DNA of 64,000 nucleotides from an uncultured Candidatus Saccharibacteria bacterium (GTDB lineage Bacteria > Patescibacteriota > Minisyncoccia > Phycocordibacterales > UBA2100): assembly GCA_964437185.1 (NCBI GenBank), contig CAYTFU010000005.1, positions 2,528 through 66,527 of the forward strand, given 5' to 3'. The notes under the pieces were generated by a model. The model had not been told where the DNA came from, did not search any database, and saw only the letters and a program-made list of their open reading frames with translations. Shown here piece after piece: positions 35,195-55,342 of the stretch. Position 1 is the first letter of the stretch, and each line of letters starts with the position of its first letter. The translations under genes and the position numbers were made by a program.

Positions 35195-35202
35195 CCTCTA
35201 TA

Positions 35203-35839: not shown

Positions 35840-35845
35840 ATCTTA

Positions 35846-35973: not shown

Positions 35974-36564
35974 TCAATTAAACTGATTCATCGCGCGTTC
36001 GGGGCCTTCGGTCGCAATGATCGCGAGCGCTTTTGAAATTTGTTGGAAAACTTTCTTTAGTTCGATCAGTTCGTTCGCCTTAAACTTTGCGAGAATAAAT
36101 TTTACGACCTCCTGTTCGCCATGAGGTTTATGAATCGCGCCGCCTGCCGTCTTCGGTGAGACGCCGATGCGCACGCGGGTGAACTTTTTGGTCTTCACTG
36201 CACGCATGATTGACTCTACGCCTTTATGTCCGCCGCTTCCGCGATTAAAAGAAAGCTTGATTGTCCCGAATGGCAGGTCGAGATCGTCGTAGAGCACCAC
36301 CATACGCTCGGCCGCCTTCGCACTTTTCACGTACTTCAACACCGCAGAGCCAGATTTGTTCATAAACGTATCGGGAGCGACCAATGTAACGCTCGTTTTT
36401 CCCACAGTACCGCGCGCCACGTGAGCTTTGGACTTCTTATCTTCCCTCCACTCGTCGAATTTTTGCTCATCTGCAAAAAAATCGAGCGCCATGCGGCCGG
36501 CATTGTGCCGTGTCGACTCATATTCCTCACCTGGATTACCGAGACCGACAAATACCCATGCCAT
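35974..36564 (-). CDS. pth: peptidyl-tRNA hydrolase
   Basis: MAWVFVGLGNPGEEYESTRHNAGRMALDFFA N-terminal Pth signature; start placed inside the longer 35974..36687 ORF. Confidence 0.9.
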   Translation of the reverse strand: MAWVFVGLGNPGEEYESTRHNAGRMALDFFADEQKFDEWREDKKSKAHVARGTVGKTSVTLVAPDTFMNKSGSAVLKYVKSAKAAERMVVLYDDLDLPFGTIKLSFNRGSGGHKGVESIMRAVKTKKFTRVRIGVSPKTAGGAIHKPHGEQEVVKFILAKFKANELIELKKVFQQISKALAIIATEGPERAMNQFN

Positions 36565-36794
36565 ATCGAGTAGTTTATAGTTAGTAGTGAAGAGTGGATA
36601 GAAGGAAATTGCAAAAATGCAACGTTCGGTAACTATAAACCAAAAAAAATCTTCTACAAACCACCAATCGCTTTGTGTCAATCCCAAAGGAGATGTAGAA
36701 TGTCGCTCATGACTGATGCAGTGATGTTCGAAAGCTCATCACGAATCGCATTCTCCGTTTTTATTCAGCCCTCCGGCTCTCTCACACGTCGTAT

Positions 36795-37424
36795 ATGAAC
36801 GACGATCGCGCATATGATCAGGCACATCCTGTCCCGCCCGTGGAGGAGTCGACGAAACGCACCGATAGATCGCTCATTGGGTACACTGTCGTCGCCCTCG
36901 GCCTCGCGCTTTTCGTTCGATTCTTCATTGCCGCGCCGTATGTGGTCTCGGGCGCCTCGATGGAGCCCAATTTTCATGACTGGGAGTACTTGATCGTCGA
37001 CAGAATAACCTACGATTTCAGCGAACCCGTGCGCGGTGATGTGGTGATCTTCGATTTACCGCAAAATTCGAGCCGCGCGCTCATCAAGCGCGTCATTGGA
37101 CTCCCGGGAGAGACCGTCACGCTCACCGACAGCAACGTGAGCATCACAAATACTGAGCACCCGGGCGGATTTACGCTCAGCGAACCGTACCTTCGCGCAG
37201 AAAATCTTGGTGGATCCACCGATCAGCAGATCACACTCGGATCGGGAGAATATTTTGTACTCGGAGACAACCGCCGCGTATCCGCTGACTCGCGCTTGTG
37301 GGGCGTTCTTCCCGAGAGCGAAATCGTCGGGCGCGTGCTCTTGCGCTTGTACCCATTCAACGCGATTGATCTTCTTCCCGAGCAAGCACGATACGATCAA
37401 GACGCGCCGCGCGCACAACAGTGA
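36795..37424 (+). CDS. lepB: signal peptidase I
   Basis: VVSGASMEPNF (catalytic Ser region), KRVIGLPGETV, VLGDNRRVSADSRLWG boxes. Confidence 0.85.
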   Translation: MNDDRAYDQAHPVPPVEESTKRTDRSLIGYTVVALGLALFVRFFIAAPYVVSGASMEPNFHDWEYLIVDRITYDFSEPVRGDVVIFDLPQNSSRALIKRVIGLPGETVTLTDSNVSITNTEHPGGFTLSEPYLRAENLGGSTDQQITLGSGEYFVLGDNRRVSADSRLWGVLPESEIVGRVLLRLYPFNAIDLLPEQARYDQDAPRAQQ

Positions 37425-37431
37425 TACTCAT

Positions 37432-38652
37432 ATGATCCGACTCAAAGACACACAGCACATAAACACCGCCGCGTTTCTCGGCTCTGCGATCAAGGTCGCC
37501 GAGTACTATGGATTCTCTCCTCTCGATCAGGCAGCGCGCATCGCGCCTTCGACCGGTGGCGTGGCGCGACAACCCATTCTCTCCCTTTCACAAATCGAAT
37601 CGGAAATTGCGTTTGCGCGACGCGACGAGCGCCCGCTTCTCTCATCGGCTCGCAAGTGTCTCAATTCGGCGCAAAAAAACGGCGCGCTCCTCGCGTGGCG
37701 CGTGGTCGAGAGTGCAGGCAGCATGCCCTCCGCATCTCTTGAACTTCACATCGTCGGACCTTCGAGCGCGATTGCAGAGGCGCTTCTCGTCGTCGTCGCA
37801 AACGCGATTGCTGAAGAAGCAGGAATCGCCCAGCGCGTGCTTTCGGTCAACAACATCGGATCATCCGAATCATCCAATCGTTTCGTGCGCGATGTAGGGC
37901 ACTACTTGCGAAAGCACATCGAATCGATTAGCCCTACGCTGCGCCCGCGCGCAGCGACCGATCCCTTGGGCACGCTCGTGCAGCTCATCGAGCGCGGTCA
38001 CCCAGCCACTCCGCGCGCACCGCAAGCGATGGAATATCTTACCGAAGAAGAGCGCAAGCGTTTTTGGGAATTTCTCGAATACCTCGAAATGTTTGGCTTG
38101 CCATACGAACTCAACGCGCACATCCTCGGGAGCCGCGATTGCTGGTCGCACTCGCTTTTTGAAATCTCTACCCCCGATGCTGAGAGCGGCGCACGCGTAC
38201 CGCTCGCCTTTGGAGGTCGTTACGATCCGCTCGCAAGTCGTTTTGCCCGTACGCCCGCCTCCGCCGCGATGATATCGATCACGTGCGAAGTTCGCGGCAA
38301 GACGCGTGTCCCGCAAGAAAAGAAGGTGACGCGCAGCGAAGTGCAGCCCGCGATTTATTTTGCGCACTTAGGCAACGAAGCCCGCAGACGCGCTCTCTCC
38401 GTTATCGAAAACCTCCGTCGAGCGGCAATCCCCGTACACCAAGGCCTCTGGCACGAGCGCATCGCGGAGCAAATGAGCACGGCACAAGAGCTGAGCGTCC
38501 CCTATATTCTCATCATGGGTCACAAAGAGGCAGTGGAAGGCACGATTCTCGTGCGCGAAGTCTCCACGAATTCACAAGAAGCAATTCCGCTCCCCGATCT
38601 CACCGGATACTTGAAGCGCCGCCGCATCGGCCGCACCGAAGCGCTCGCCTAA
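37432..38652 (+). CDS. divergent histidyl-tRNA-synthetase-like class II aaRS paralog (HisS or HisZ-like)
   Basis: FGGRYDPL (HisRS motif-3-like GGRYD), N-terminal AIKVAEYYGFSPLDQ resembling the HisRS motif 1 region, C-terminal anticodon-binding-like alpha/beta region; canonical motif 2 not recognisable. Confidence 0.5.
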   Translation: MIRLKDTQHINTAAFLGSAIKVAEYYGFSPLDQAARIAPSTGGVARQPILSLSQIESEIAFARRDERPLLSSARKCLNSAQKNGALLAWRVVESAGSMPSASLELHIVGPSSAIAEALLVVVANAIAEEAGIAQRVLSVNNIGSSESSNRFVRDVGHYLRKHIESISPTLRPRAATDPLGTLVQLIERGHPATPRAPQAMEYLTEEERKRFWEFLEYLEMFGLPYELNAHILGSRDCWSHSLFEISTPDAESGARVPLAFGGRYDPLASRFARTPASAAMISITCEVRGKTRVPQEKKVTRSEVQPAIYFAHLGNEARRRALSVIENLRRAAIPVHQGLWHERIAEQMSTAQELSVPYILIMGHKEAVEGTILVREVSTNSQEAIPLPDLTGYLKRRRIGRTEALA

Positions 38653-38660
38653 CGCTGCAC

Positions 38661-39032
38661 CTATTCTAAGCACTGTCCCTCGGGCAAGCCCCAACACGCG
38701 CCGTTTTTCTCTACGAGTGATTGATTGAGTGATTCGACGTGCGAATTTTTGAGTCCGCGCGAAGCATACTCATGAAAGTACTGCGACATCCGAAGCCCGA
38801 GCTGCGCTTCGTAGCTGCTGTCGAGCGCTTTCATACCCGAGAGAAGTTCTGATATAAGATTTTCGTTTGAAAGTTCACGCACATCGACAGGCTGCGCGGG
38901 AGGCTGCGCCATCCCCGTATTGATTTCAGGAACGAAAAGATTGTTTTGCCACGCAAAAAATCCAATACTCAACGCGATCAAAAATGCGACCACCGCGCTC
39001 ACCACAAAATACACCTTCCTCATCCTCAACAT
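38661..39032 (-). CDS. hypothetical membrane-anchored protein
   Basis: N-terminal TM helix VVSAVVAFLIALSIGFFAW, C-terminal Cys pair. Confidence 0.35.
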   Translation of the reverse strand: MLRMRKVYFVVSAVVAFLIALSIGFFAWQNNLFVPEINTGMAQPPAQPVDVRELSNENLISELLSGMKALDSSYEAQLGLRMSQYFHEYASRGLKNSHVESLNQSLVEKNGACWGLPEGQCLE

Positions 39033-39119
39033 GCATCCAGTATATATCTAAAAAGTAGGCGACCCCCAGCAGCAAATCATTGCCACCGAGGGTCCGTAGT
39101 CAGGCCCGCGCCCGAATTG

Positions 39120-39932
39120 TTACGCGGTGGTTCGCAGGATCAGGGCAAGGTCCTCGTCCAGCGAGCAAGCATCGAGTCGGACGAATCCTTGCTGACCGGA
39201 ATAGTATCCGACCATGTGCCCGTTCCCTGGATCGAGCACGACGACCGGCGCCCCGAAGTATCCACCCTGATGCCACTTGTCGTCGTAGACGACCGTGATT
39301 TTCTCGGGCAGTCCCCGAAGTTCCCAGCCGAAATGCGCGACAAGCACCCGCTCCCCGTTTGCGGTCTTCGTGTTGTAGCGCAGGAACCGGAAGTCGCCCC
39401 ACACTTTCAACTTGTCGAGGGAATTGATGGCGAGGCAGGGAACACCTGGCGCGGCACTCACGCCCCCCGGGACATATTGGTATTCGCGGTCCATCGAGAA
39501 GACGATGACCTCCTCCGCACATTCCCGGCGCACCGTGGCCAATAGATCCGGGCCGTCCTCGAAGTCCGCCCAACCCATCGGGACGGGCTTGAAGCCCCTC
39601 AGCCGATCGTCGTAAACGGCAAGGATGCCGTCGCGAGTGCGCAACGCGCCCGTGGCACCAGAGAGCCAAAGGCCTGGCGGCGCTTCCGCGCTGAATTTCT
39701 TGCGATCGGCGAGGTTGACATAGGCGTCCTTGATAAACGCGAACAGCCCCGTATCGTACTCAACCCGAAGTGCGATCCTCTGCTTCGAGGGCGGTTTGTG
39801 ATATGCAGTATTCTCCTCCATCAGACGCCTGAGATAGTCGCGCTGCTCGTTGAGGCGCAGGTCCGCGATTTCAACCGTGTGATAATGTGACAAAGAGCCA
39901 TCCTCCTGTTCGATTGCGCCGCAGTGGCGCAA
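39120..39932 (-). CDS. hypothetical protein in GC-rich island (weak Nudix-box-like segment)
   Basis: 270 aa; segment GWADFEDGPDLLATVRRECAEEV loosely resembles the Nudix box; GC clearly above flanks. Confidence 0.4.
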   Translation of the reverse strand: MRHCGAIEQEDGSLSHYHTVEIADLRLNEQRDYLRRLMEENTAYHKPPSKQRIALRVEYDTGLFAFIKDAYVNLADRKKFSAEAPPGLWLSGATGALRTRDGILAVYDDRLRGFKPVPMGWADFEDGPDLLATVRRECAEEVIVFSMDREYQYVPGGVSAAPGVPCLAINSLDKLKVWGDFRFLRYNTKTANGERVLVAHFGWELRGLPEKITVVYDDKWHQGGYFGAPVVVLDPGNGHMVGYYSGQQGFVRLDACSLDEDLALILRTTA

Positions 39933-40033
39933 TGCGGTGACAAGACTCTACATCATTTTTGTATGTCCGTCAATGGCGATTTTGGCGCACAGAAGTTGGA
40001 CAGAATGGTGTCTGTCTGCTATTCTCCTCGGAC

Positions 40034-40357
40034 ATGTCGATCAACGCAGAAGTTACAAAAAGCGGCAATGAGAGCACGCTTTCTACCATTCGCAAATTCA
40101 GCCGCCGCGTGCAAGGCACTGGCCTCATTCGCACCGTCCGCGGTCAGCGATATTTTCTACGCGATTCGTCGAAAGTGGTGAAAAAGAAGCGCGCTCTCAA
40201 GCTCATCAAGCGCCGCGCGGAGTTTAAGAAGCTCGTGAAAGAGGGCAAGATTTCCGATGAACCCGTCCGAGGCCGTGGCCGCCCATCGTTCAACCGCCCT
40301 TCTACTACGCAGACCGAGGCGCAAAAGCCTGCCGACACTACCCCGATTCTTCGATAA
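40034..40357 (+). CDS. rpsU: 30S ribosomal protein S21 (with C-terminal basic extension)
   Basis: RKFSRRVQGTGLIRTVRGQRYFLRDSSKVVKKKRAL resembles the S21 core; start placed at MSINAEV. Confidence 0.65.
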   Translation: MSINAEVTKSGNESTLSTIRKFSRRVQGTGLIRTVRGQRYFLRDSSKVVKKKRALKLIKRRAEFKKLVKEGKISDEPVRGRGRPSFNRPSTTQTEAQKPADTTPILR

Positions 40358-40360
40358 GCA

Positions 40361-40801
40361 ATGACTGAGGTCGTTGCCATCCGATCCACACTGCGCACGA
40401 AAGTGCCGGTCTTGCCGTATGAGAAAATAGCGCGCGCCGTACTCGGCGCGCGCTATGAACTATCTCTCGTGATCTGCGGAGACTCACTCGCGAAGCGAAT
40501 GAATATCGAATATCGTCCTACTTCGCCAAGGCTTCGAAGGACAAAAAAGAAAAGTTATTCCCCAAATGTACTATCATTCCCCCTCTCAAAGACTGAGGGA
40601 GAAATATTTTTGAATGTCCGTAAGGCTGAGCGCGAGGCGCGACTCTTTGGCGTCTCTACGAGAGAGCGACTCGCGCTCTTATTTGTCCACGGCTGCTACC
40701 ATTTGAGGGGGCTCCAACATGGGCGTACAATGGAGGGCAAGGAGCGCGACACGCTGCGCGCTTTCTCATTCTCATGGCACGGCAATTCTACACGGGCATA
40801 G
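40361..40801 (+). CDS. ybeY: rRNA maturation endoribonuclease YbeY
   Basis: VHGCYHLRGLQHG zinc-binding H-x-x-x-H-x5-H-like motif. Confidence 0.8.
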   Translation: MTEVVAIRSTLRTKVPVLPYEKIARAVLGARYELSLVICGDSLAKRMNIEYRPTSPRLRRTKKKSYSPNVLSFPLSKTEGEIFLNVRKAEREARLFGVSTRERLALLFVHGCYHLRGLQHGRTMEGKERDTLRAFSFSWHGNSTRA

Positions 40802-41958
40802 ACATCGGCACGTACCACGTCAAGGTTGTCATTGCGGCTCCTAGCGATGCGCAGACGGGCGGATCGGAATTCCCGCTCACCATTATTGGCTCTGGCACAT
40901 CTTCTTCGCGGGGCCTCCGACACGGCTATATCATAGACAAAAAAGAGGCGACAAAAGCTATTCGCGAAGCTCTCGGTCGGGCGGTCGTATCGGCGAAGGT
41001 GCGCGTGCGCAGCGCGCGCATTGGCCTCGGCGGAATCGGACTCGATGAGATTCGCAGCACGGGCGAGATTCCTCTCACGCCATCGGGCGGAATCGTCACC
41101 GATCGCGAAATTGAGCGCGCGCTGCGCGAGGCCGAGAAGCGCGCGTCTTCGAAACTCACCAACCGATCCATCATTCACGCGATACCCCTCGAATACCGCA
41201 TCGATGGTGCCAAGGTTTTCGGCAACCCCCAAGGGCTTCAGGGCACGCGTCTCGCGATCGACGCGCTTCTCATCACCATGCTCTCACAGCACCAGGAAGA
41301 TATTGTGGAGGCGGTGGAGGCAGCGGGAGTAGAGGTGGATGGCGTGATGGCCTCCCCGCTCGCCGCAAGCCTCGTCACGCTCACAAAGGCGCAAAAGACT
41401 GCGGGTGTGGTACTCGCAAATATTGGCGCAGAAACGCTCTCCGTCGCGGTGTTTGAAAACGACACGCCGATATCTCTCAAAATATTTCCCACGGGCTCGT
41501 CGCAGATCACCGAATCGATCGCGCTTTCATTTAAAATTCCACTACCGGAAGCAGAGAGCCTGAAGCGCGGCGGTGTGACGGGAAGCGACGTTCCTGAGAA
41601 AAAAATATATACGCTTGTGAGCGCTCGCCTCAAAGAAATGTACACGCTGGTCAACGCGCACCTCAAATCAATCGATCGTCATCGGCTATTGCCTGCGGGC
41701 GTCGTGATCACGGGCGGCGGTTCGGGTATCTCTTCGGCCTCTGATATCGCGAAAGCGGTGCTGCAAATACCCTCGCAAGTTTCTCAGATCGGACACCTGC
41801 CCCGATCGGCGGGAATCGACGCTACATGGGCGGTCGCGTTTGGCCTGTGCCGATGGGGATATGCCGAGGATATGAGCGGATCGAGCCGTGCATTTGGCGG
41901 AATACTCCGCGACGCCTGGGACTCGCTTCTTCAATCCATCCGCTCGCTCTTGCCGTAG
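40774..41958 (+). CDS. ftsA: cell division protein FtsA
   Basis: FYTGIDIGTYHVKVVIA actin-fold phosphate-1 block, 394 aa, directly upstream of ftsZ. Confidence 0.9.
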   Translation: MARQFYTGIDIGTYHVKVVIAAPSDAQTGGSEFPLTIIGSGTSSSRGLRHGYIIDKKEATKAIREALGRAVVSAKVRVRSARIGLGGIGLDEIRSTGEIPLTPSGGIVTDREIERALREAEKRASSKLTNRSIIHAIPLEYRIDGAKVFGNPQGLQGTRLAIDALLITMLSQHQEDIVEAVEAAGVEVDGVMASPLAASLVTLTKAQKTAGVVLANIGAETLSVAVFENDTPISLKIFPTGSSQITESIALSFKIPLPEAESLKRGGVTGSDVPEKKIYTLVSARLKEMYTLVNAHLKSIDRHRLLPAGVVITGGGSGISSASDIAKAVLQIPSQVSQIGHLPRSAGIDATWAVAFGLCRWGYAEDMSGSSRAFGGILRDAWDSLLQSIRSLLP

Positions 41959-42072
41959 TCAAAAGTAGACATTTGTTGTCCTTCGTGGGGTGGATGCGTC
42001 ATCAAACTTGAACACTGAGCGCATCTTAGGTCAAGCTTGTGAGAATCCATAAAGTGCTATTATGTCCTCACT

Positions 42073-43275
42073 ATGAGCAAACAAGTGAAGCCTGATGTAG
42101 AGTCGTTTGCACGAATTCGAGTTATTGGAGTCGGAGGCTCAGGAGGCAACGCGGTCAATCACATGGTGAATTCTCATGTGATGGGCGTTGATTTCATTGC
42201 GATCAACACCGATGCGCAAGATCTCCACAAATCAAAGGCAAAGCGCAAAATTCACATCGGAAAAAATATTACGCGCGGCCTCGGAGCGGGGATGAATGCA
42301 GAGATCGGCAAGCAGGCTGCAGAAGAAACGCGCGACGACATTCAAGAAGCGATCAAAGGTTCTGACATGGTTTTCATCACGTGCGGAATGGGTGGCGGCA
42401 CAGGTACCGGTGCCGCTCCAGCCGTTGCAAAAGTCGCACGCGAGCTTGGTGCTCTCACTGTCGGAGTCGTGACGCGTCCGTTTTCTTTCGAGGGTCAGCA
42501 GCGCATGCGCCTTGCAGAAGCGGGACTCGCAGAACTCCGCAAAGCGGTAGACGCGCTCATCATCATTCCCAACGACAAATTGCTCGCTATCGTTTCCCGC
42601 GAGACAGGCATTCGCAACGCTTTTGCAATGTGCGATGACATACTGAAGCAGGCGGTTGAGGGAATTTCGGACCTCATTACGACCACAGGAATCATCAATG
42701 TCGACTTCGCCGACGTTCGAGCAATCATGCAGAATGCTGGCTCGGCGCTTATGGGTATTGGCACCGCAATCGGCGAGCACCGAGCAGAGATGGCCGCGCG
42801 CGCCGCTATCAATTCTCCGCTCCTCGAAGTATCGATCACGGGCGCGAAGGGCGTGCTCTTCTCGGTCGCTGGTGGCGAAGACTTGGGAATGCTCGAAGTG
42901 CAAGATGCCGCCAACGTCATCACCGAGGCAATCGACCCCGACGCGAAGGTTATCTTCGGCGCCGTTACGGACGATTCGCTCAAGAAGGGCCAGATCCGTG
43001 TTACCGTCATCGCGACCGGTTTCCCGGAGCCGGGTGTCAAATCGTCACTCTTTGTTGGCTCACAGCGACTTGTTGCAAAAAAGGATCATGATGTGCCGCC
43101 CGTGAGTGCTCGCGCTCGCGAAGAAATGAAGCGCGATGAGATAACAGTGGAAAAATTTGATCGACCTGTAAAAGAAATGCCGAGGGTCGAGCCGCCTAAA
43201 CCAACAAAACCTGAGCCTCGGGCAGACGAAGAAGATAACTGGGGTGGCCTTCCATCGTTTTTGCGCAGAAAGTAA
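42073..43275 (+). CDS. ftsZ: cell division protein FtsZ
   Basis: [11 protein letters not shown] and GGGTGTG tubulin signature, 400 aa. Confidence 0.95.
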
Positions 43276-43339
43276 GAACCTGGGCGTGTCCAAATCCAAA
43301 GGAGAAAGTTTCAACTATTTTGCGCTATAATTGTTCGTC

Positions 43340-44284
43340 ATGACTGACACGTACGAACTTGCAATAGTAGGCGGCGGCCCCGCAGGGGCCGCCGCAGCTG
43401 TGTATGCCGCGCGAAAGCGCATCAAAACCATCTTCATCACCGCCGAGTGGGGCGGACAGAGCATCACATCGCTCGAAATTCAAAACTGGATCGGCACTCC
43501 TCAGATATCAGGCGCAGAGCTCGCGGAAAATCTAAAGAAACACGTGGAGGCATACGTGGGTGAATGGCTCACGATCATTGCTCCCGCTTTTGCTGAATCG
43601 CTGGCGGCTCACGATGAGTCAGTCGAAATCGGACTACGGGACAAACGCGTCTTCAAAGCCAAAGTCGCGCTTATTACAACGGGCGCAAACCGCCGCAAGC
43701 TCGAAGTCCCCGGCGCAGCAGAATACGATCAAAAGGGCCTCACCTATTGCGCTTCGTGCGACGGCCCACTCTTTGCCGACAAGGATGTCGCGGTGATCGG
43801 CGGAGGCAACGCCGCATTCGAAACGGCCCTTCAGCTTCTCGCTTATTGCAAGACAGTCACGCTCTTCAATCGTGGAGAGACTTTCCGTGCGGATAAAATT
43901 AGCGTTGATGCGGCGCTCGCACATCCCAACATGCGCGTCATAAAGAATTCTGAGATCCTGGCCGTGGAGGGCACGCAATTTGTTACGGGCCTCAAATGGA
44001 AAGATGCGCAGAGCGGTAAAGAAGAAGTGCTTCCGGTAGAGGGTATTTTTGTGGAGATCGGCCTCATTCCCAATACCACGTGGATCGGGAATGCACTCGA
44101 TATGAATGAAGTAGGGCAAATCAAAGTCGATCCTCGTACACATCGCACCTCGCACCCGCGCATTTGGGCCGCGGGCGATTGCACCGACGGCATCTATCAT
44201 CAAAACAACATCGCCGCTGGCGATGCTGTGAAAGCTCTCGAAGACATCTACCTCTCGCTGCGCCACCAACCTCAAAATATATAA
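43340..44284 (+). CDS. trxB: thioredoxin-disulfide reductase
   Basis: AIVGGGPAGAAAAVYAAR FAD motif, CASCDG redox-active disulfide (CxxC), second NAD(P) Rossmann GGGNAA. Confidence 0.85.
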   Translation: MTDTYELAIVGGGPAGAAAAVYAARKRIKTIFITAEWGGQSITSLEIQNWIGTPQISGAELAENLKKHVEAYVGEWLTIIAPAFAESLAAHDESVEIGLRDKRVFKAKVALITTGANRRKLEVPGAAEYDQKGLTYCASCDGPLFADKDVAVIGGGNAAFETALQLLAYCKTVTLFNRGETFRADKISVDAALAHPNMRVIKNSEILAVEGTQFVTGLKWKDAQSGKEEVLPVEGIFVEIGLIPNTTWIGNALDMNEVGQIKVDPRTHRTSHPRIWAAGDCTDGIYHQNNIAAGDAVKALEDIYLSLRHQPQNI

Positions 44285-44391
44285 ACCCCGTTAGAAGCCC
44301 TAGTGATGAGTTTTTCTCACGCTAGACATCTGATGAAACCCAGCGCAAATAAACGTTGAAAGTGCTCACTTCTAACGGGGTAAAGTTTTGC

Positions 44392-44421
44392 GGGCCGGAC
44401 TCGTTAAGTCCGGCCCGTTTT
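44392..44421 (+). terminator. Rho-independent terminator after trxB
   Basis: gggccggac/gtccggccc 9-bp stem, loop tcgttaa, followed by gtttt. Confidence 0.65.
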
Positions 44422-45134
44422 CCGAGTAGTACAACGGGACCCTTAGGCTCCGTCTTCCACGGTTTGGCTCGGTGGAGGCACTGGTACCGGTGGGGGACCC
44501 AGGACTTGCGGAGGCGGTGGCACCACATCCGCCGCATCGACAAGGCTCTCGTCCCCAGGATCAGTATTCGCAAGATATCTCGTCGGGTCGGCCATGACTT
44601 GATCTCCATCACCCCCGTGGTGAATTTCATTGGAACAAAATAGGACTTGCGGGGGATACAAGTCTCTACATGAAAGTATTTCAAATCAGGCCCACGTGTC
44701 AACAAAAAACAAACGAGCCGGCCACAAGGGTCGGCTCGCTTCGTCGCATACTTAGCCACACGTCAGAGGCTACGAAACGCAACGTTGATGATCCGCAACA
44801 CGAGCAGATCATACGCATGACCTGGGCCGATCGCGGCTTTGATGTCGAGCCCCGCGCGTCGCCCGCAATCCGCCGCAGCGCGAGCGAGGTCGTCGAACGT
44901 TTGACCGGTCTCCTTCCTGGTCATGGCATTCAATGCCCGTGCTGCGCCCATGACGGCTCGCGTCACGTCATGCTCAGCCACCACTACACTAGTTTGCCCG
45001 AACATCTCATTCTCCCATTGGTGCCACTACTCTGTGCAGGGCGTTGTTTCTCCCGCAGACGTCGCGGGCCGAGGGGAATCAAACACTCTTTGGGCGACTC
45101 TGTCAACTTTTTCATCCATATGCTATGCTCGCCA

Positions 45135-46281
45135 CATGAAAAAATCGCTGGTAAATGCGACTGAAGCGAGGGCGTTAATTGCGAAGCATGGTTCCCCGCT
45201 CTACGTGTACAGGAAGAGTGTCGTGGAGCAACGCTACCAAGATTTGGTGAAATCGATCCAGTATCCAAAAACAAAGATTTATTACGCCTGCAAGGCCAAT
45301 TTCAATTCCGAAATTCTGCACACATTACTCAGGCTCGGTTCCTCGGTCGAGTGCGTGAGCAAGGGTGAAGTGGAGCGCGCGATTGCGGTGGGTTTTCCCC
45401 GCGAGCGAATTTCGTTTACCTGCTCCAATATGAGTAAGGATGAGCTTGCCTGGGTAACGGAGCGAGTAGGGTCAGTGCACCTCGATTCGCTTACGCAACT
45501 CACATGGTGGGGAGAAATGAAACCGCACTCAAAGGTATCACTGCGCGTGAATCGCGGGTTTGGCGCGGGCGCGACGAGCCACATCATCACGGGCGGCCCT
45601 GAGAGCAAATTTGGGATTTACTACACCGACCTTCCGAAAGCAAAAAACATTGCAAAAAAATATGGCCTCTCCGTCGTGGGTCTCGAACAGCACATCGGCT
45701 CCAGCATTCTCAATCCGAGCGCTTTTATCCGCGCGATGAAGCTGCTCACAGAGTCGGCGAAAGGATTTCCCGATCTGCAATTTATGGATTTCGGCGGGGG
45801 ACTCGGCATTCCCTACAAGCTCGAACAAAAGCCGCTCGACATCGCGGCGCTCGGGAAAAAACTTGGCGATACGTTTTCAAAGTTTTGCGCATCGTACGGT
45901 CGTAATCTCGAACTGCGCCTCGAACCGGGCCGCTACATCGTCGCAGAATCGGGCGCATTTCTTGCCACAGTTGTCGACATCAAGACGACTCCGAATCACA
46001 CATTCGTCGGCATCAACTCCGGATTCAACCATCTGATCCGTCCCGCCTTCTATGGCTCATACCATCACATCCTCAACCTCACCCGCCCGAATGCAAAAGT
46101 AGCCGCTGTTACGGTAGTCGGCAACATCTGCGAATCCTCCGACCGATTTGCTACAAACCGAAAAATTCCGATGCCACACATCGGCGACATTCTCCTCCTT
46201 GCGGATGCCGGTGCCTATGGATTTGTTATGGCATCCGATTACAACCTCCACCCGAAGCCGCCCGAAATTTTGATCGACTAA
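45135..46281 (+). CDS. lysA: diaminopimelate decarboxylase
   Basis: PLP fold-III decarboxylase blocks (YACKAN, HIGSSI, EPGRYIVAESG, CESSD); start placed at MKKSLV. Confidence 0.9.
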
Positions 46282-46932
46282 CTACGACGTAATACGCTTC
46301 AGTACCGAGAAGGCGCGATCCACATCGGCGTCTTCAAATATGAGGCTAAGCTCCGTCAGAACCGACATAACTTCCACGAAGCTGATCCCCTCCATAGCAA
46401 GCGCTTTCAGTACGGGGTAGTACAGGCCAGGGACATCGAGGCTTTCCTCGGGCAATCGAAGCGTGATCGCAGAGAGCTTCCCCCTTCGGCGAATATTTTT
46501 GTACTTCGACAACGCACCTGCCACACCCTTTTCAGAGCCCGCGTCGACAATGAGCAAAGATTCGTTGAGGCCGCGGGAGAAGTTGAGAAACGACCCCTTA
46601 CGATGACGAGATCCTTTGGATATTTCCTCAAGAATGCCGGAGAGCTCGTCAGAATTCGGGCACACAAATTGTACGAGATTGGACCGAACCGTTATGTCAT
46701 TGAGATGACGCAGAAAACGCATCCCAAAAAGTGGCGCTCGCATCTCCTTACTCATTCGGTGGAGCGCCATGCCGATGGCCGCATCCGAAACCTTTTCCAT
46801 CAGCCGTGACTCCACTTCGGGGCGAATCTTGCGCGCGATTTGTGCATGATTAGCAATTCCTTCCGCCAGCGCCTCCGCATAAAATGGCGACCGCCCAAGT
46901 ACTTCCTCCACGATCTGACTTATCGTTCTCAT
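46282..46932 (-). CDS. ACT-domain-containing protein (aspartokinase regulatory-domain-like)
   Basis: C-terminal tandem ACT-like beta-alpha-beta-beta-alpha-beta segments; sits between lysA and dapB. Confidence 0.45.
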   Translation of the reverse strand: MRTISQIVEEVLGRSPFYAEALAEGIANHAQIARKIRPEVESRLMEKVSDAAIGMALHRMSKEMRAPLFGMRFLRHLNDITVRSNLVQFVCPNSDELSGILEEISKGSRHRKGSFLNFSRGLNESLLIVDAGSEKGVAGALSKYKNIRRRGKLSAITLRLPEESLDVPGLYYPVLKALAMEGISFVEVMSVLTELSLIFEDADVDRAFSVLKRITS

Positions 46933-47044
46933 TGTTATATTTATAACAATTTGTCACATTAATGTAAATATCACCAAAAAACTTCCCTTTTCCGAGCGAA
47001 GGCGTAAGATGTGCTGACGAAACGGGCACAACCCCCTTCTACGC

Positions 47045-47782
47045 ATGAAAATATTGCTCTTGGGATATGGAAATATGGGGCGAGAAATTGAGGAACTCCT
47101 CATAGCGGGCGGCACTCACACATACGATATCGCGCTCAAGAAAGTGGGATCTGCACTTATACCCGCTCAGGTGCAGGGGGCAGATGTGGTGATCGATTTC
47201 ACATCGCCAGACGCGGTTTTGCGCAACATCAAGACCGTTCTTTCTTTGGGGAAACGCATGGTCGTGGGTACGACCGGCTGGTACGAGCACCTTCCGAAAG
47301 TCGCAGCACTGGTTAAAAAACACAAGACGGGGCTTCTATACGGTGCAAATTTCTCCATTGGAGCCAATATATTTTTTCGACTTGTCGCGGAGGCGACGCG
47401 TCTCACCTCCCGCGTGGGCGCGTACGATGCGTTTGGTTTTGAAATCCATCACGCGGGCAAAAAGGATAGCCCTTCGGGAACCGCGCTGCGCACCGCACAT
47501 GAAATACTCAAACACTCAAAGACTAAGAAAGCGCTTCAAACGCAACGGCTCGACCGTGCAATCAAGCCGCAGGAACTGCATTTTGCGTCTGTCCGCGGCG
47601 GCCACAACAGAGGCTTCCATCAAGTAGTCTTCGACAGCGCCGCCGACGCCATTACGGTAAGTCACGCCGCGCACAGCAGGCGCGGCTTTGCGGAAGGCGC
47701 TATTCTCGCCGCCGAGTTTATTCACCGAAAAAAAGGCCTGTACACATTTGACGACGTGATCGAACAAAAAATTTCCGTATGA
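47045..47782 (+). CDS. dapB: 4-hydroxy-tetrahydrodipicolinate reductase
   Basis: MKILLLGYGNMG Rossmann, EIHHAGKKDSPSGTAL signature. Confidence 0.9.
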   Translation: MKILLLGYGNMGREIEELLIAGGTHTYDIALKKVGSALIPAQVQGADVVIDFTSPDAVLRNIKTVLSLGKRMVVGTTGWYEHLPKVAALVKKHKTGLLYGANFSIGANIFFRLVAEATRLTSRVGAYDAFGFEIHHAGKKDSPSGTALRTAHEILKHSKTKKALQTQRLDRAIKPQELHFASVRGGHNRGFHQVVFDSAADAITVSHAAHSRRGFAEGAILAAEFIHRKKGLYTFDDVIEQKISV

Positions 47783-48684
47783 AAAAAATACTTTTTGAAG
47801 GTGCTTTTACCGCTATCGTCACACCGTTTACAAAACGTGGCGGTATTGACCTGCCAGCACTGCGCCGACTTCTTGCGTACCAGCTCGATGGCGGCATCAA
47901 CGGAATCGTGGTGTGCGGCTCTACAGGAGAGGCCGCGACACTTTCCGAAAAGGAGTACAGCCTCGTCGTTCGGCAAACAGTACGGACGGTAGCGGGCAGA
48001 GTTCCTGTCATTGCGGGCGCCGGTTCCAACAACACGCAGAGGGCGATTGCGTGGTCTCGCCTCGCGGCCAAGGCGGGAGCCGACGCACTTCTCCACGTAA
48101 CCCCTTTTTACAACAAACCCACGCCCGACGGCCTAGTCGCCCACTTCAAAGCCATCGCAAAAGCGGTCGACCTACCTATCATCATCTACAATGTTCCCAG
48201 CCGCACCGGACAAAACCTATCCCCCCGACTAGTAGCTCGCATAGGGAAAGAGGTGCCGCGGGTCATCGGCATCAAAGAGGCTGCGGGCAGCATCAATCAA
48301 TTTGGTGAGCTCATGCAGCTCGTTCCGAAACATTTTACGGTACTCTCGGGCGACGATTCGCTCACCATTCCGGCGATGGTGCTCGGAGCGAAGGGGTGTA
48401 TTAGCGTGGTCTCCAATGAAGCGCCGAGGGATTTTTCTCTCCTGTGCGCTGCGGCGCTCCGAGGAGATTGGGAGAATGCGCGAGCGCTTCATTTTCGGCT
48501 TCTTGATTTGATGAACATCAACTTCATCGAGTCCAACCCTTCGCCAGTCAAATGCGCCCTCGCGATGATGGGTATTATCGAAGAATCTTTGAGGCTCCCC
48601 CTCGCACCCCTCGAAAAGAAAAACAGACCGGCGGTGAGGCGGGCACTCCAACAGTTGAAATTGTTACGACATGGCACACATTAA
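47779..48684 (+). CDS. dapA: 4-hydroxy-tetrahydrodipicolinate synthase
   Basis: TAIVTPF, GSTGEAATLS, active-site Lys region GIKEAAG. Confidence 0.9.
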   Translation: MKKILFEGAFTAIVTPFTKRGGIDLPALRRLLAYQLDGGINGIVVCGSTGEAATLSEKEYSLVVRQTVRTVAGRVPVIAGAGSNNTQRAIAWSRLAAKAGADALLHVTPFYNKPTPDGLVAHFKAIAKAVDLPIIIYNVPSRTGQNLSPRLVARIGKEVPRVIGIKEAAGSINQFGELMQLVPKHFTVLSGDDSLTIPAMVLGAKGCISVVSNEAPRDFSLLCAAALRGDWENARALHFRLLDLMNINFIESNPSPVKCALAMMGIIEESLRLPLAPLEKKNRPAVRRALQQLKLLRHGTH

Positions 48685-49867
48685 TCCCAACTTCAGAAAT
48701 GTTGCAGAGGGTTACTTTTTCTCTGAGATCGGGAAACGAGTCGCAGCTTTTAGCGCGGAGAATCCCGGCGTTGAACTCTATCGACTCGGTATCGGCAATA
48801 CCACCGAGGCACTCACTCCCGCAATAATTCGTGGGCTCACGCACGGGGTGGAGAAACTGAGTCGACGCGAGACCTATGCCGGGTATGGAGACGAGCAAGG
48901 CGATGCGCGGCTTCGAAAAGCAGTCGTTGCGCTCTATGCAGAGCGTGGAATTTCATTTGCTCCAAACGAAGTGTTTATCAGCGACGGCGCCAAGTCCGAT
49001 TGCGCCAACATCATGTCGATTTTTTCGCCGAAGAGCGTGATTGCAGTGAGCGATCCGGTGTACCCAGTGTACCGTGACGCGGCCCTCCTCTCGGGGAAGA
49101 AAGTGACATACATGAACGCAACAGAAAAGAATTCTTTTTTTCCCGCGCCACCTTCGGAGCACGCTGATCTGATATTCCTCTGCAGCCCCAACAATCCGAC
49201 AGGAGCCGTCGCGACGAAGGCGCAATTGAAGCGATTTGTCGATTACGCGATCAAACATAAGGCGATCATACTTTTCGACGCAGCGTATTCCGAATTTATC
49301 CGCGATGCTTCGCTTCCAAAAAGTATTTACGAGATCAAGGGAGCAAAACGGTGCGCGATTGAGATTCAGAGTTTTTCGAAATCGGCGGGATTCACGGGCG
49401 TACGCTTGGGATGGACCGTCGTCCCCAATGATCTCGTGATCGCGGATGCTCCCCAAGGCGTCCTCAATCAAATGTGGAATAGACGACAAACCACCATGTT
49501 CAACGGCGCTTCAAACATCGCACAGGAGGGCGGGCTCGCGGCGCTTTCCGCCGCAGGACAGCAACAAACGCGTCGACAAATTGCCTTTTACATGGACAAC
49601 GCGCGAATAATCCGCGATGGCCTTCGGAAGTCCGGATTCACTATCTATGGAGGCGAGAATGCGCCCTATGTATGGCTCAAGTGCCCGAAGGGACGCACCT
49701 CATGGGAATTTTTTGACGACCTTCTCGCAGTTGCTCACGTGATCACGACCCCAGGCATCGGATTCGGATCACAGGGGGAAGGATACTTGAGGCTCTCAGC
49801 GTTTGGCAGCAGGAAAACCATCACCAAGGCTATCAATTCTATTCAAAAACATTTTGCACGCGTATGA
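48671..49867 (+). CDS. dapL: LL-diaminopimelate aminotransferase
   Basis: class I/II aminotransferase, [17 protein letters not shown]-Lys region, overall DapL-like layout. Confidence 0.8.
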
Positions 49868-50703
49868 AAATGCAATTTACAAAAATGCAGGGACTTGGCA
49901 ACGATTTCGTCGTCTTCGACGGTATCAACCAAAAGATACAGATGACGAGGAAGATTGCGCGCCGACTTGCGGATCGACATTTCGGCATTGGATGCGACCA
50001 GATACTAATCGTCGAGCGCCCCAAGAGTAAGGAGGCAGACTTTGGATACCGCATTTGGAATTCCGACGGTGGCGAAGTGGAGCAGTGCGGCAACGGAGCA
50101 CGATGCTTTGTACGATTCGTGATTGATAAGAAGCTTACGCTCAAAAAAGAAATTCGCGTCGAAACCAAGGGCGGTATCATAATCCCGCGTCTCGAATTAA
50201 ACGGTGAAATCACCGTGGATATGGGTATGCCAATCTTTGAGCCCAAACGCATTCCCTTTACGAGTGACTCCACGGAGATGGTGCAACCACTCGAAGTAGG
50301 CGGCGAAGTGATCGAAATCTCAGCCGTGTCGATGGGCAATCCTCACGCGGTGCAGGTGGTTCCCGATATCGATGCGGCTCCGGTGACGAGCCAGGGGCCG
50401 CTCATAGAAAATCACCCCTGCTTCCCCCTGCGCGTGAATGCGGGCTATATGCAAATTGTCGACCGAAAAAATATCCGACTACGGGTCTGGGAGCGCGGAG
50501 CGGGCGAAACACTCGCGTGCGGCACTGGCGCGTGTGCGGCCGTCGCCGCAGGCATCCGTCGCGGGCTACTCGAATCATCAGTAACAGTCGCAACGCGCGG
50601 GGGCAAACTCACCATCCGTTGGGAGGAGAAAAATAATCTTCCATCGCCAGTCAAAATGACGGGGCCGGCGGAAAGCGTTTTTGACGGAGAAATAGATCTG
50701 TAG
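49864..50703 (+). CDS. dapF: diaminopimelate epimerase
   Basis: [14 protein letters not shown]-terminus, two catalytic Cys regions ([18 protein letters not shown]). Confidence 0.9.
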
Positions 50704-50715
50704 GCTAGTTGTAGG

Positions 50716-51705
50716 TTAGTGCCGAAAATGGCGGATGCCGGTGAAAACCATGGCAATGCCTGCGGCGTTCGCAGCGCTAATTGAATCCTGATCTTTAAGA
50801 GAACCGCCCGGCTGGATAATCGCCGTAATCCCCTCCTGCGCAGCCACGTCCACGCAATCAGGAAACGGCATAAAAGCATCGGAGGCCATTACGGCGCCTT
50901 CGAGAGAAATTTTCTCGTCGGCCGCCTTAATCGCGGCAAGCCGCGCGGAGTATATGCGGCTCATCTGCCCCGCGCCTATTCCTACTGTCGCGCCATCTTT
51001 TGCATACACGATCGCGTTGGACTTTACGTGTTTGCATACGGTGAATGCAAAGAGTAGGTCAGCGAGTTCTTTTTCTGTTGGCACGCGCGTGGTGACTGTT
51101 TTTACCTCACCGTCAAACACCTTCGCATCGGCGGTCTGTACGAGTACGCCACCCGCGATTGATCGCATGGTCGTACGAGGTTCCGCAGGATCGGGCATTG
51201 ATCCCGTGAGGAGCACGCGCACATTCGGCTTCACCGAAAGAATCGTGAGCGCTTCTTCCTCGGCATCGGGAGCGATGATTACTTCGAGAAATATTTTGAC
51301 AAGCTCGCTCGCAAGATCGGCAGTGATTTTCGAATTGAGCGCGACGATACCGCCAAAGGCAGAGACGGTGTCGCACGCAAACGCTCGCATGTAGGCATCG
51401 TGAATCGTGTCCGCAACCGCCACTCCACACGGGTTCATGTGCTTCACGATCACAGCGGCTGGCTCCTCAAACTCGGCGACGCATTCAAAGGCCGCGTCGG
51501 CGTCCTGCAAATTGTTGAAGCTGAGTTCCTTCCCCTGCACCATGCGCGCAGACGCGACGCCCGGTCGGACGTCGCCTGGATTTCTGTACAAAGCCGCTGC
51601 TTGGTGAGGATTCTCACCGTAGCGAAGCGCGCTTATTTTCTCGAGCCTCAGCGAGAGAGGCGATGGAAGCTGTTCTTGCTCGTGATCCGCTTCGTTCATT
51701 GCCAC
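50716..51705 (-). CDS. purH: AICAR transformylase domain protein (PurH C-terminal domain only, no IMP-cyclohydrolase/MGS domain)
   Basis: [10 protein letters not shown] near the N-terminus corresponds to about residue 220 of bifunctional PurH; GTG start; 329 aa. Confidence 0.8.
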
Positions 51706-52648
51706 ATACTACTACGCCTCAGCTCATTTCTCCATCGCGAAACTACTCTACAACGATCACCTTGCCGTACACGCCGCCCTTCACGTGATTGTGGTACGGC
51801 CATGTACCCACCTTCTCAAACTTCGTAGTATACGTTGCTCCAACTGCACACTGGTCAAATGCAGTGTCAGTCGTGTCGGGACAGTGCTCTTTGAGTGTCG
51901 TACCCGCGTAGCCTTTGTGATCCGGGTGCATCGCGGTCGCTACCCACATATCGGGACCTGTGCTCGTGAAGGTAACGGTACTTCCCTTCTTAACCGTCAC
52001 TTCAGCGGGAGTAAACGCTGCACCATCGTACGAAACTCCACACGGGTTCATGTGCTTCACGATCACAGCGGCTGGCTCCTCAAACTCGGCGACGCATTCA
52101 AAGGCCGCGTCGGCGTCCTGCAAATTGTTGAAGCTGAGTTCCTTCCCCTGCACCATGCGCGCAGACGCGACGCCCGGTCGGACGTCGCCTGGATTTCTGT
52201 ACAAAGCCGCTGCTTGGTGAGGATTCTCACCGTAGCGAAGCGCGCTTATTTTCTCGAGCCTCAGCGAGAGAGGCGATGGAAGCTGTTCTTGCTCGTGATC
52301 CGCTTCGTTCATTGCCACATACTACTACGCCTCAGCTCATTTCTCCATCGCGAAACTACTCTACAACGATCACCTTGCCGTACACGCCGCCCTTCACGTG
52401 ATTGTGGTACGGCCATGTACCCACCTTCTCAAACTTCGTAGTATACGTTGCTCCAACTGCACACTGGTCAAATGCAGTGTCAGTCGTGTCGGGACAGTGC
52501 TCTTTGAGTGTCGTACCCGCGTAGCCTTTGTGATCCGGGTGCATCGCGGTCGCTACCCACATATCGGGACCTGTGCTCGTGAAGGTAACGGTACTTCCCT
52601 TCTTAACCGTCACTTCAGCGGGAGTAAACGCTGCACCATCGTACGAAA
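51423..52648. repeat. perfect tandem duplication, 2 x 613 bp
   Basis: 51423..52035 equals 52036..52648; junction gcaccatcgtacgaaac|tccacacggg. Confidence 0.85.
51743..52318 (-). pseudogene. chimeric ORF created by the duplication: PurH residues 1-95 fused to the C-terminal 96 residues of the cupredoxin-like protein
   Basis: first 95 aa identical to 50716..51705 product, remainder identical to the C-terminus of 52356..52820 product. Confidence 0.6.
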
Positions 52649-52820
52649 CAGTCGCTGTTGTCGCAGCTGCCGGAACCCCCGCATCAGTCGGCACAGCTGG
52701 GACGGTCGGAACTGCTGCAACCGGCGCTGGATTCTCCACCGAAGCCGCAGAACCCTTCATAAGCCAATATCCGCCACCAAGTACTACAATTATTATCACT
52801 ATCCACATCACTGGTTTCAT
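52356..52820 (-). CDS. cupredoxin-like (plastocyanin-fold) membrane-anchored protein
   Basis: N-terminal [15 protein letters not shown] ... HPDHKGYAG ... CPD ... [10 protein letters not shown]: His/Cys/His ligand-like pattern. Confidence 0.65.
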   Translation of the reverse strand: MKPVMWIVIIIVVLGGGYWLMKGSAASVENPAPVAAVPTVPAVPTDAGVPAAATTATVSYDGAAFTPAEVTVKKGSTVTFTSTGPDMWVATAMHPDHKGYAGTTLKEHCPDTTDTAFDQCAVGATYTTKFEKVGTWPYHNHVKGGVYGKVIVVE

Positions 52821-52915
52821 AAAATAAAGAAATAGAATCTAATATCGAGAAAGTATACTATGTGTGCTCTTGAATAAAACTTTCGCTGTGGAACAAAACG
52901 TGTCCTATTATGGCA

Positions 52916-53383
52916 CTACTGCACAATAATCAAACCTGTCTGATATCCATGCAAGTGATCGTGATAGCGCCACTCGCCCGCGTAATTAAACGTGTAGTCG
53001 AAAAACTGCCCCGGATTCAGCACGGCGCACGAATCGAAAGAACTTCCGAGACAATCGGATTCATTCTTCTCCGGATAGAGCGTGTGGGTGGGGTGGAGAG
53101 CGGAGGCTGGCCATACACTCTCTTTTGAGTCGTTGAGAAAACGGATCCGTTCGCCCTTCTTAATCGTTACCGACTCCGGTTCGAATCCCTTGTCCGTGTA
53201 TCGGATCATAACGTCAAATGAATCCGTGTCGACATCTGCACTTCCGACGACACCGAGCCCTGGCGCTTCTGTGTTTTGCTCATACTGATCGACGGAGCGC
53301 GTCGAGATATATTGATACACCAAACCTGCAACAGCCCCCGCAACCAATAACAACAAGAGTACCCATGTGCGGGGCATTCGCAT
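52916..53383 (-). CDS. cupredoxin-like membrane-anchored protein, paralog
   Basis: same architecture: TM anchor, VTIKKGERIRFLN, HPTHTLYPEKNESDC, WRYHDHLHG. Confidence 0.6.
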   Translation of the reverse strand: MRMPRTWVLLLLLVAGAVAGLVYQYISTRSVDQYEQNTEAPGLGVVGSADVDTDSFDVMIRYTDKGFEPESVTIKKGERIRFLNDSKESVWPASALHPTHTLYPEKNESDCLGSSFDSCAVLNPGQFFDYTFNYAGEWRYHDHLHGYQTGLIIVQ

Positions 53384-53385
53384 AC

Positions 53386-54060
53386 TTACGCCGATTTTGT
53401 ACGCGCCAAAAAGTCCTTCCCATGCCCGACGTCAGTGTTCACGGGAATTCCTCCCTTACAGAGATCGCAGTCAGCCTCCGGCCACTGACTCAGGTGGACG
53501 GTAAGAAGCGAGACAAACTCGTCGGGATTATCAACGACCTCCTTGGTCACACCTCCTCTATTACAAATTGCGACGGCACCCACCACCTCGGCGCCCGCGG
53601 CGCGCGTCGCGATGATGACCTTCTTGAGCGAGCCACCGGTCGTCACCAAATCTTCTACCACGAGCACCTTTTTGTCCTTAATGAGCGCATCGTACCCACG
53701 ACGAATTGCAAACCCTTGCGCCTCATCTTTATCCGCATAGGTACTGTATACCTCTTTACCCTCAAGTTCCGAAAGGTGGTATGCAACCCACTGAGAGAGA
53801 ATGATGCCCCCTGTCGACGGGCCGACGACAGCCTCTATACCCTTCCCCTTAAACGTCTCCGCAATGCTTCGACAGAGCGCGGACATTTCGCGTGTAAATG
53901 GATACATCGCGTTTTTGTTGACGTACGTATCCATATGAAGCCCCGACGCGCCGACGAAATGTCCGGCACGAAACGCGCCTACCCGTTGCAATAAATCTAA
54001 AACCTCTGCTTCACTCATCGACATACAAAGTATTCTATAGCGCTTTTGAAATTGCGCCAT
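53386..54060 (-). CDS. pyrE: orotate phosphoribosyltransferase-like (type I PRTase)
   Basis: VLVVEDLVTTGGSL PRPP-binding motif; adjacent to pyrF. Confidence 0.75.
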   Translation of the reverse strand: MAQFQKRYRILCMSMSEAEVLDLLQRVGAFRAGHFVGASGLHMDTYVNKNAMYPFTREMSALCRSIAETFKGKGIEAVVGPSTGGIILSQWVAYHLSELEGKEVYSTYADKDEAQGFAIRRGYDALIKDKKVLVVEDLVTTGGSLKKVIIATRAAGAEVVGAVAICNRGGVTKEVVDNPDEFVSLLTVHLSQWPEADCDLCKGGIPVNTDVGHGKDFLARTKSA

Positions 54061-54865
54061 TCAATTCTATAACCTTTTCGCGCGCTGCTTCTGCAAAATC
54101 CTTTTCGAGCGATGCAAAAATGACCGCGCGCGACGCGCAGATGATCATTCCCCTTCCGCGACTATCTTTGCCAGAGGCAACCGTTTTCTCAAGATCGCCA
54201 CCCTGCGCACCGATGCCCGGAATAAGAATTGGCATATCGACTACGATTCGCCGCACAGCGGCAAGATCGTCGGTGTTGGTCGCGCCGACCATGATCATCG
54301 TGTTGCCATTGCGATTCCACGCACCGGCCGTCATCGTGGCGACGGTCTGATAGAGCGGTACATCGCCCACCTGCAAACTTTGGATTTCACCAGCCCCGGG
54401 ATTGGAGGATCGACACAGCACGATAATGCCTTTGTCTTTCCTGTCGAAAAAAGGCTGAAGGGCATCTGAACCAAAGTACGGGTGCACGGTAATGGCGTCG
54501 GCGTGCAGGTGGTCAAATGCAAATTGCGCATACTGACTATTCGTGTTGCCAATGTCTCCACGCTTTGCGTCGAGCACCACCGGCACGTCAGGCGCTTGAT
54601 CGTTGATGTACTGAATCGTCTCGCGTAGCGCGCGGTACCCTTCGTCGCCCCACGCCTCGTAAAACGCGCTGTTGGGTTTGTATGAGCACACGAGATCTTT
54701 CGTCGCATCAACGATTCCTCGATTGAAAGCGACAATCGACTCACGCACGCTACCCTTTCGAATCCATTCTGGAATACTTTCAAAATCACTGTCGAGCCCA
54801 ACACACAAAAATTTTCCCTCGTCCCACTTTTTATCCAAAAGGGCCCTAAAATTCCTCTGGCTCAT
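54035..54865 (-). CDS. pyrF: orotidine 5'-phosphate decarboxylase (long type 2)
   Basis: VVLDAKRGDIGNT active-site Lys/Asp block; start placed at MSQRNF. Confidence 0.85.
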   Translation of the reverse strand: MSQRNFRALLDKKWDEGKFLCVGLDSDFESIPEWIRKGSVRESIVAFNRGIVDATKDLVCSYKPNSAFYEAWGDEGYRALRETIQYINDQAPDVPVVLDAKRGDIGNTNSQYAQFAFDHLHADAITVHPYFGSDALQPFFDRKDKGIIVLCRSSNPGAGEIQSLQVGDVPLYQTVATMTAGAWNRNGNTMIMVGATNTDDLAAVRRIVVDMPILIPGIGAQGGDLEKTVASGKDSRGRGMIICASRAVIFASLEKDFAEAAREKVIELNGAISKAL

Positions 54866-54922
54866 TAGGGGACATACTAACATAAAAGGGCAAAAAATTA
54901 TCCGGCGAGGGTTCAACATACT

Positions 54923-55342
54923 TCATGTTGAATCCCCCGCCGGCCTTTGCTGAAGCGACCAACGATACCGCCCGCCGCTCATTTCCAGAAAAAATACAGG
55001 AAATTGCGTAGTAGAACTCCCGTGAACTTCTTCGAGAGCCGCAACTTTCTCCCAAAGACTTTCCCGCGGAACATTTCGATGTTTCGCGACTTCTTGAGCA
55101 AAAAACCCATTTTTACAGGGCAGATCGACGATGTAAACGTCGAAACCTTCACGGATTGGATTTACCGCAACGACGCGAGTTTTACCGTTGAGCCCGAGCT
55201 TGGCTTTTGCAGCCGCCTGCAATTCGTTTCCGCAATTGGGAACGCGAAAAACCATTTGCGCCTCCTGTGTTAGGAACACTCGTTGTCCAGACCATCCCGG
55301 ACAACTTCGTATCCCCAACGCCTCAAAGAACAGTAAGAACAA
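54923..55342 (-). CDS. hypothetical protein
   Basis: 139-aa ORF co-directional with pyrF; competing 108-aa ORF on the + strand (54947..55273); neither has a recognisable motif. Confidence 0.3.
   Translation of the reverse strand: MFLLFFEALGIRSCPGWSGQRVFLTQEAQMVFRVPNCGNELQAAAKAKLGLNGKTRVVAVNPIREGFDVYIVDLPCKNGFFAQEVAKHRNVPRESLWEKVAALEEVHGSSTTQFPVFFLEMSGGRYRWSLQQRPAGDST

Follow-up and report, generated by a model that had tools for sequence, protein, structure and literature searches.

A 613-bp tandem repeat with a PurH-cupredoxin fusion frame on a single CPR contig, for which a local assembly error is the favoured explanation

The birth of chimeric genes at duplication junctions is a known class of event. 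The locus described here resembles it in that the 5′ part of one gene, together with its translation start, is fused in frame to the 3′ part of the upstream neighbour and both parents are intact; it differs in that the fusion is without an orthologue and is known from one contig sequence. Spontaneous tandem duplications with short junctions (Sun et al. 2012, PMC3411829; Slack et al. 2006, PMC1428787) are likewise direct and head to tail with short junction homology, and a duplication of this kind should be unstable and of low frequency in its population. The size usually selected for gene dosage is kilobases to hundreds of kilobases as against 0.6 kb here, and the verified spontaneous duplications of Sun et al. 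have at least 11 bp of junction homology as against 2 bp here, while the artificial chimeric junctions in that study show short homology (PMC3411829). On the side of artefacts, Chen et al. 2020 (PMC7111523) list local assembly errors as a class for MAGs and report 13 of them in one 1.13-Mb CPR genome. Our case is like theirs in that an identical segment of hundreds of bp stands head to tail in a contig of an uncultivated CPR MAG, is detectable by a repeat finder and is absent from other assemblies, except that here there are two copies inside a chromosomal contig, whereas in the paper the copy number can reach three or more, above all in sequences of phages. Also, the defining criterion there is a lack of read support, whereas the comparison here was made among contig sequences. 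The false duplications and false gene gains treated by Ko et al. 2022 (Genome Biol, PMC9516828) are similar in that an assembly duplication leads to an extra gene model in the protein databases (here the protein P0001); in that work the genomes are vertebrate and the cause is mainly unmerged haplotypes, whereas here the population is bacterial and haploid and the extra gene is a junction fusion. Thus both readings of the locus, as a false assembly duplication or as a spontaneous duplication with a fusion at its junction, are well-known categories.

The repeat lies in a stretch of 64 kb of DNA, which was analysed as a whole and is called the window below. Its parts are as follows.

51423..52035: copy 1 of the 613-bp unit, identical to copy 2
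52036..52648: copy 2 of the 613-bp unit, missing in the nine other contigs of the same strain
52035..52036: junction of unit end and unit start, with the dinucleotide AC, which is also present at 51422-51423 and 52648-52649

On direct comparison the two copies, head to tail, are identical at 613 of 613 nt, so that the original prediction of a perfect tandem duplication at these positions stands without a single mismatch. Identity at a period of 613 spans 51422..52036 against 52035..52649, which is one base further on each side, and a microhomology of 2 bp (AC on the plus strand, GT on the gene strand) recurs at the junction and at both outer boundaries. The junction sequence reads CACCATCGTACGAAAC up to 52035 and TCCACACGGGTTCATG from 52036. 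The unit consists of 293 nt from the 3′ end of cupredoxin-like gene 1, a spacer of 37 nt and 283 nt from the 5′ end of purH, all on the minus strand, and this make-up of 613 nt is the one that had been predicted. A k-mer census gave this unit as the sole exact repeat longer than 31 nt in the window, either direct or inverted. Its G+C content of 55.6% is like that of its flanks and the window is without any N. It may be added that TRF reported no repeat in the window, but the longest period of TRF is 500, which accounts for its silence on a period of 613; we have therefore rejected this silence as evidence against the repeat. An exact adjacent repeat of 613 nt cannot be due to chance. The arrangement, with adjacent direct copies, one novel junction and flanks that are colinear with the single-copy allele, is that of a tandem segmental duplication.

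The genes at the locus are listed here from the pyrF side.

54035..54919, minus strand: pyrF
53386..54060, minus strand: pyrE
52916..53383, minus strand: cupredoxin-like gene 2, 155 aa, a paralogue of gene 1; Pfam Cupredoxin_1 27 bits, equal to the cut-off of 27
52356..52820, minus strand: cupredoxin-like gene 1, 154 aa, intact, with an N-terminal transmembrane helix, a low-complexity linker and a C-terminal domain of predicted cupredoxin fold
51743..52318, minus strand: chimeric ORF, 191 aa, with PurH residues 1-95 and the last 96 residues of cupredoxin-like 1 in frame
50716..51705, minus strand: purH, AICARFT only, intact, 329 aa from GTG; Pfam PF01808 E = 2.9e-101
49864..50703, plus strand: dapF, convergent with purH

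The string of genes from pyrF to purH converges on dapF, which is the last gene in a dapB-dapA-dapL-dapF string. The purH gene, which public gene calls start at the ATG at 51699 (327 aa), covers positions 60-311 of the 311 positions of the PF01808 profile, a full-length match to the transformylase part, and is taken as intact because its homologues in the homology search are 320-335 aa long. The intact AICARFT gene of the original prediction is thus borne out by the profile. The chimera retains profile positions 60-150 of 311 only, short of such a match. Its first 95 residues are identical to PurH and its last 96 to cupredoxin-like 1, as had been proposed, the join in the protein being NPCGV followed directly by SYDG. 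It has the complete beta-sandwich of cupredoxin-like 1 without the membrane anchor or the linker, and the spacer of 37 nt upstream of it is the same as that of purH. Also, purH at this locus encodes the AICAR transformylase part only (327-329 aa on the minus strand), with no IMP cyclohydrolase/MGS domain, and most of its close homologues have the same size range. The best matches of purH outside the CPR are in Alphaproteobacteria (Reyranella and relatives) at about 58-61% aa identity, a resemblance that could reflect an old transfer or just strong conservation.

The other parent, an intact cupredoxin gene in the original prediction, is confirmed as an ORF of 154 aa, and its label holds. Pfam matches to the cupredoxin-like proteins are weak, with Copper-bind at 18.3 bits against a cut-off of 21.2 and Cupredoxin_1 just at its cut-off in the paralogue. 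The AF2 model of cupredoxin-like 1 has a mean pLDDT of 64, with core blocks at 70-88, and shows a beta-sandwich that follows an N-terminal helix and a linker of low confidence; a Foldseek search of the PDB with this model gave plastocyanins, amicyanin, pseudoazurin and the Bacillus anthracis Cupredoxin_1 protein 4hcf at E values of about 1e-6 to 1e-5. The model therefore points to a cupredoxin fold, that is, a Greek-key beta-sandwich like that of plastocyanin or amicyanin. In the family alignment (A1) the invariant residues are H94, P95, H97, C120, Y138, H139 and H141, and on inspection the alignment has no Cys-X-His-X-Met loop. The family pattern is an invariant HPxH ... C ... YHxH as against the Cys-His-Met loop of classical type-1 copper proteins. 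Two paralogous membrane-anchored cupredoxin-like proteins are encoded between pyrE and purH (52356..53383, minus strand), and across Kaiserbacteria-like MAGs (relatives L024-L042) the position directly upstream of the AICARFT gene is conserved as that of a cupredoxin-like gene.

The organism itself is, judged from its sequence relationships, a CPR bacterium like Candidatus Kaiserbacteria. Among GTDB representative genomes its purH locus is closest to those of MAGs of Candidatus Kaiserbacteria, Parcubacteria or Patescibacteria, at 75-79% aa identity, several of which carry the record label 'uncultured Candidatus Saccharibacteria', and no GTDB representative genome is of the same species as the window. 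A repeat comparable to the 613-bp unit was found in none of 80 related purH loci (875 kb in total), and a duplication hotspot at this locus was rejected on that count.

The public record of the chimera is narrow. Its homology search returned one full-length match, P0001, which has 189 aa (the form starting at ATG) and 100% identity; NCBI is the only source of this protein, which has no orthologue elsewhere and is encoded on a single contig of 66,978 bp, presumably the one that the window was taken from. The parent proteins P0002 and P0003 are present in NCBI, Logan and ENA. A 39-mer over the junction had no match in GTDB representative genomes or in JGI metagenome contigs. A 38-mer from inside the unit also had no match in JGI contigs, from which it follows that the strain itself is absent from these contigs.

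To compare the locus among assemblies, contigs of the same strain were retrieved by exact-protein look-up with cupredoxin-1, cupredoxin-2, DapF, the 327-aa PurH, ClpB, FtsZ and a GH15 protein. They come from four ENA assemblies of MEGAHIT style (ERZ27247817, -820, -830 and -837, with contig names of the form k141_...) and five Logan run assemblies (ERR3094293, -94, -95, -96 and -302), cover 1-21.5 kb and 32-62.3 kb of the window and are 99.9-100% identical to it. Since the ENA and Logan assemblies may share read sets, they stand for at least 5 independent ones and not necessarily for 9. All nine contigs that cross the locus align to a one-copy model without gaps and with 0-2 mismatches, and each has the unit once. 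The junction was seen in 0 of these 9 assemblies of the same population (four ENA, five Logan), and its 39-mer in none of the retrieved same-strain contigs. The longest comparison is given by ERZ27247837 k141_1234984, which has 50,006 bp and corresponds to window 4503..55121 (50,619 bp) minus exactly 613; because the difference is exactly 613 bp, the extra copy is the only structural or length difference in 50 kb. With flanks that agree at 99.93-100% over as much as 50 kb, we rejected different strains as the cause of one against two copies. It follows from the comparison that a single deposited contig has the second copy, in a population that is otherwise clonal across many samples. As nine assemblies have one copy and the chimera is on a single NCBI contig, the duplication is not part of the consensus genome.

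In a de Bruijn graph of the window, the region of 47-56 kb branches at just two k-mers, the one that opens the unit and the one that closes it, at k=31 as well as at k=141. Unitig-based assemblers end their contigs at branch k-mers unless one of the branches is pruned as low-depth. We take the final k of MEGAHIT to be 141, as the contig names suggest, and that of Logan/Minia to be 31. The nine contigs extend beyond the left boundary of the unit by 35 to 11,559 nt and beyond the right one by 169 to 8,668 nt; since they are unbroken there, the junction is either absent from those read sets or a small minority in them. This bears directly on the reading in which two copies are true everywhere and the nine one-copy contigs are short-read repeat collapses. 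De Bruijn assemblers with k of up to 141 cannot place a unit of 613 bp twice in one unitig and so could never show both copies, as that reading would have it. But after a collapse the graph has a loop, and contigs break at both the first and the last k-mer of the unit, whereas nine contigs from two assemblers and at least five runs cross both boundaries. The junction k-mers would have to be absent or pruned in every one of these data sets, and we consider the reading very improbable.

A few contig ends elsewhere in the same comparison may be noted on their own. The Logan contigs of two runs stop in window 52821..52872, the spacer between the cupredoxin-like genes (at 52817, 52820 / 52853, 52872), while the MEGAHIT contigs and two other Logan contigs run through it; it is not a unit boundary, and the stops suggest a local drop in coverage or a small polymorphism of the spacer. 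At window 47406..47422 contig k141_342670 of ERZ27247817 ends and k141_77810 begins with an overlap of 17 nt, the window being continuous there. The surroundings are G+C-rich with a palindrome, GACGCGTC, flanked by GGAGG/CCTCC, and this break is probably one made by the assembler at a hairpin or a dip in coverage.

The alternatives that had been named at the outset, a very recent duplication or an assembly artefact, are still the correct pair, with the artefact now the likelier of the two in view of the nine one-copy assemblies and the singleton chimera. From the comparison of assemblies we favour a local assembly error as the origin of the second copy over a genuine duplication, with a probability of roughly 0.55. 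The identity of 100% between the copies, a junction homology of 2 bp that is at chance level and the absence of the second copy elsewhere fit such an error. By our calculation with equal base frequencies, the probability of at least 2 bp of junction homology by chance is about 0.16. The repeat is an identical concatenated sequence that is found by a repeat search and is private to one assembly, and in this it resembles the false duplications of PMC7111523. If the error is accepted, the second copy and the chimeric ORF would not be in the genome of this Kaiserbacteria-like population, and the true locus would be pyrF, pyrE, cupredoxin-2, cupredoxin-1, the 37-nt spacer and purH (AICARFT only) with no fusion gene. 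The error could come about when a path-walking assembler circles a spurious loop, or one of very low coverage, once too often, or alternatively in a merging or extension step after assembly.

Against this stands a genuine and very recent tandem duplication, which we hold to be a real contender though below even odds. Either a minority of the cells would have it, their junction reads having taken a path-walking assembler through the loop, or it would be the dominant allele of the one sample behind the source MAG. It would have arisen by an illegitimate, microhomology-mediated and RecA-independent route, the template switching or the strands realigning after slippage between two AC dinucleotides at a distance of 613 bp. 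The copies are cleanly head to tail with perfectly colinear flanks and the 2-bp microhomology, and their zero divergence matches an event of very young age. Neither parent gene nor the operon is disrupted and the reading frame is maintained through the fusion, as expected for a real duplication that is tolerable, although a fusion would be in frame by chance in one case out of three. The same population also has what may be an older partial tandem duplication (the 3′ end of rpmG, with a period of 167 bp) that is present in some assemblies and absent in others. Yet 9 of 9 other assemblies, from a strain that otherwise agrees at 99.9-100%, are without the second copy and show no graph branches at the ends of the unit, and the chimeric protein is recorded once. 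Its 2 bp of homology are no better than chance (about 16%) and fewer than the 11 bp or more of the verified duplications in PMC3411829, and there is no apparent selective advantage in a chimera that has AICARFT positions 60-150 of 311.

The kind of assembler that produced the source contig bears on both readings. De Bruijn contigs hold only k-mers that occur in the reads, a point in favour of a genuine duplication. If a pure de Bruijn short-read assembler was the source, the junction k-mers were therefore in the reads, which favours either minority real molecules or library-chimeric ones. Neighbouring de Bruijn contigs overlap by less than k, and for that reason a simple unmerged-overlap scaffolding error, of the classic kind, does not readily give 613 bp, which is again in favour of a genuine duplication. 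Scaffolding Ns placed over an unrecognised overlap (PMC7111523) were also rejected as a simple cause, the window being free of N and 613 bp being much longer than an overlap of less than k. It may also be that the sample of the source contig is outside the nine.

The fuller form of the genuine reading, in which the duplication is only generations old, makes a new, translatable, in-frame fusion gene beside intact parents and is polymorphic on a clonal one-copy background, is slightly more doubtful again. If it is real, the unit would bring the ribosome-binding region and the start codon of purH, and the fusion would be co-transcribed with the other genes from pyrF to purH, its translation starting as that of purH does. 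From it would come a cytoplasmic protein of 191 aa made of about 30% of the AICARFT domain and an anchor-less cupredoxin domain. This protein would very probably be inactive in purine synthesis, and the membrane would separate its cupredoxin domain from the side where it belongs. The perfect 613-bp repeats would recombine by homology and so delete the duplication again. A duplication of this kind, if true, would be a modest though clean case, from a natural population of uncultivated cells, of a young gene fused at a junction, with mechanism and outcome both of the textbook type, and a snapshot of the first step in chimeric gene birth.

Returning to the assembly error as the preferred reading, the organism most likely has no such fusion, and nothing suggests a function or a selection for it. 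The matter is then one of data hygiene. Under the identifier P0001 the fusion ORF is already listed as a singleton 'AICARFT' protein in a large protein collection, where it could pass for a new PurH-cupredoxin domain architecture, and it should not be so read. Also, the chimeric ORF inflates the gene count of a reduced CPR genome.

Two further observations concern other repeats and mobile elements on the same contigs. In the rpmG region (14916..15134, minus strand) there is a direct repeat of 52 nt that is 94% identical at a spacing of 167 nt. Its upstream copy is the 3′ end of the gene of ribosomal protein L33 (ending in KKYCKWCKAHTKHKESKK) and its downstream copy has decayed to a remnant that an in-frame stop interrupts. 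Contig k141_469346 of ERZ27247820 is without exactly these 167 nt and other assemblies retain them (the window was compared with L003 5559..5607), so that this difference is either an older polymorphic partial tandem duplication or a collapse in ERZ27247820. A Y1 transposase of the IS200/IS605 type (PF01797) is encoded on a contig of the same strain (L104, 19773..20450) between a dUTPase-like gene and a DHFR gene; it lies about 2 kb beyond position 1 of the window and is the only mobile-element gene seen near it.
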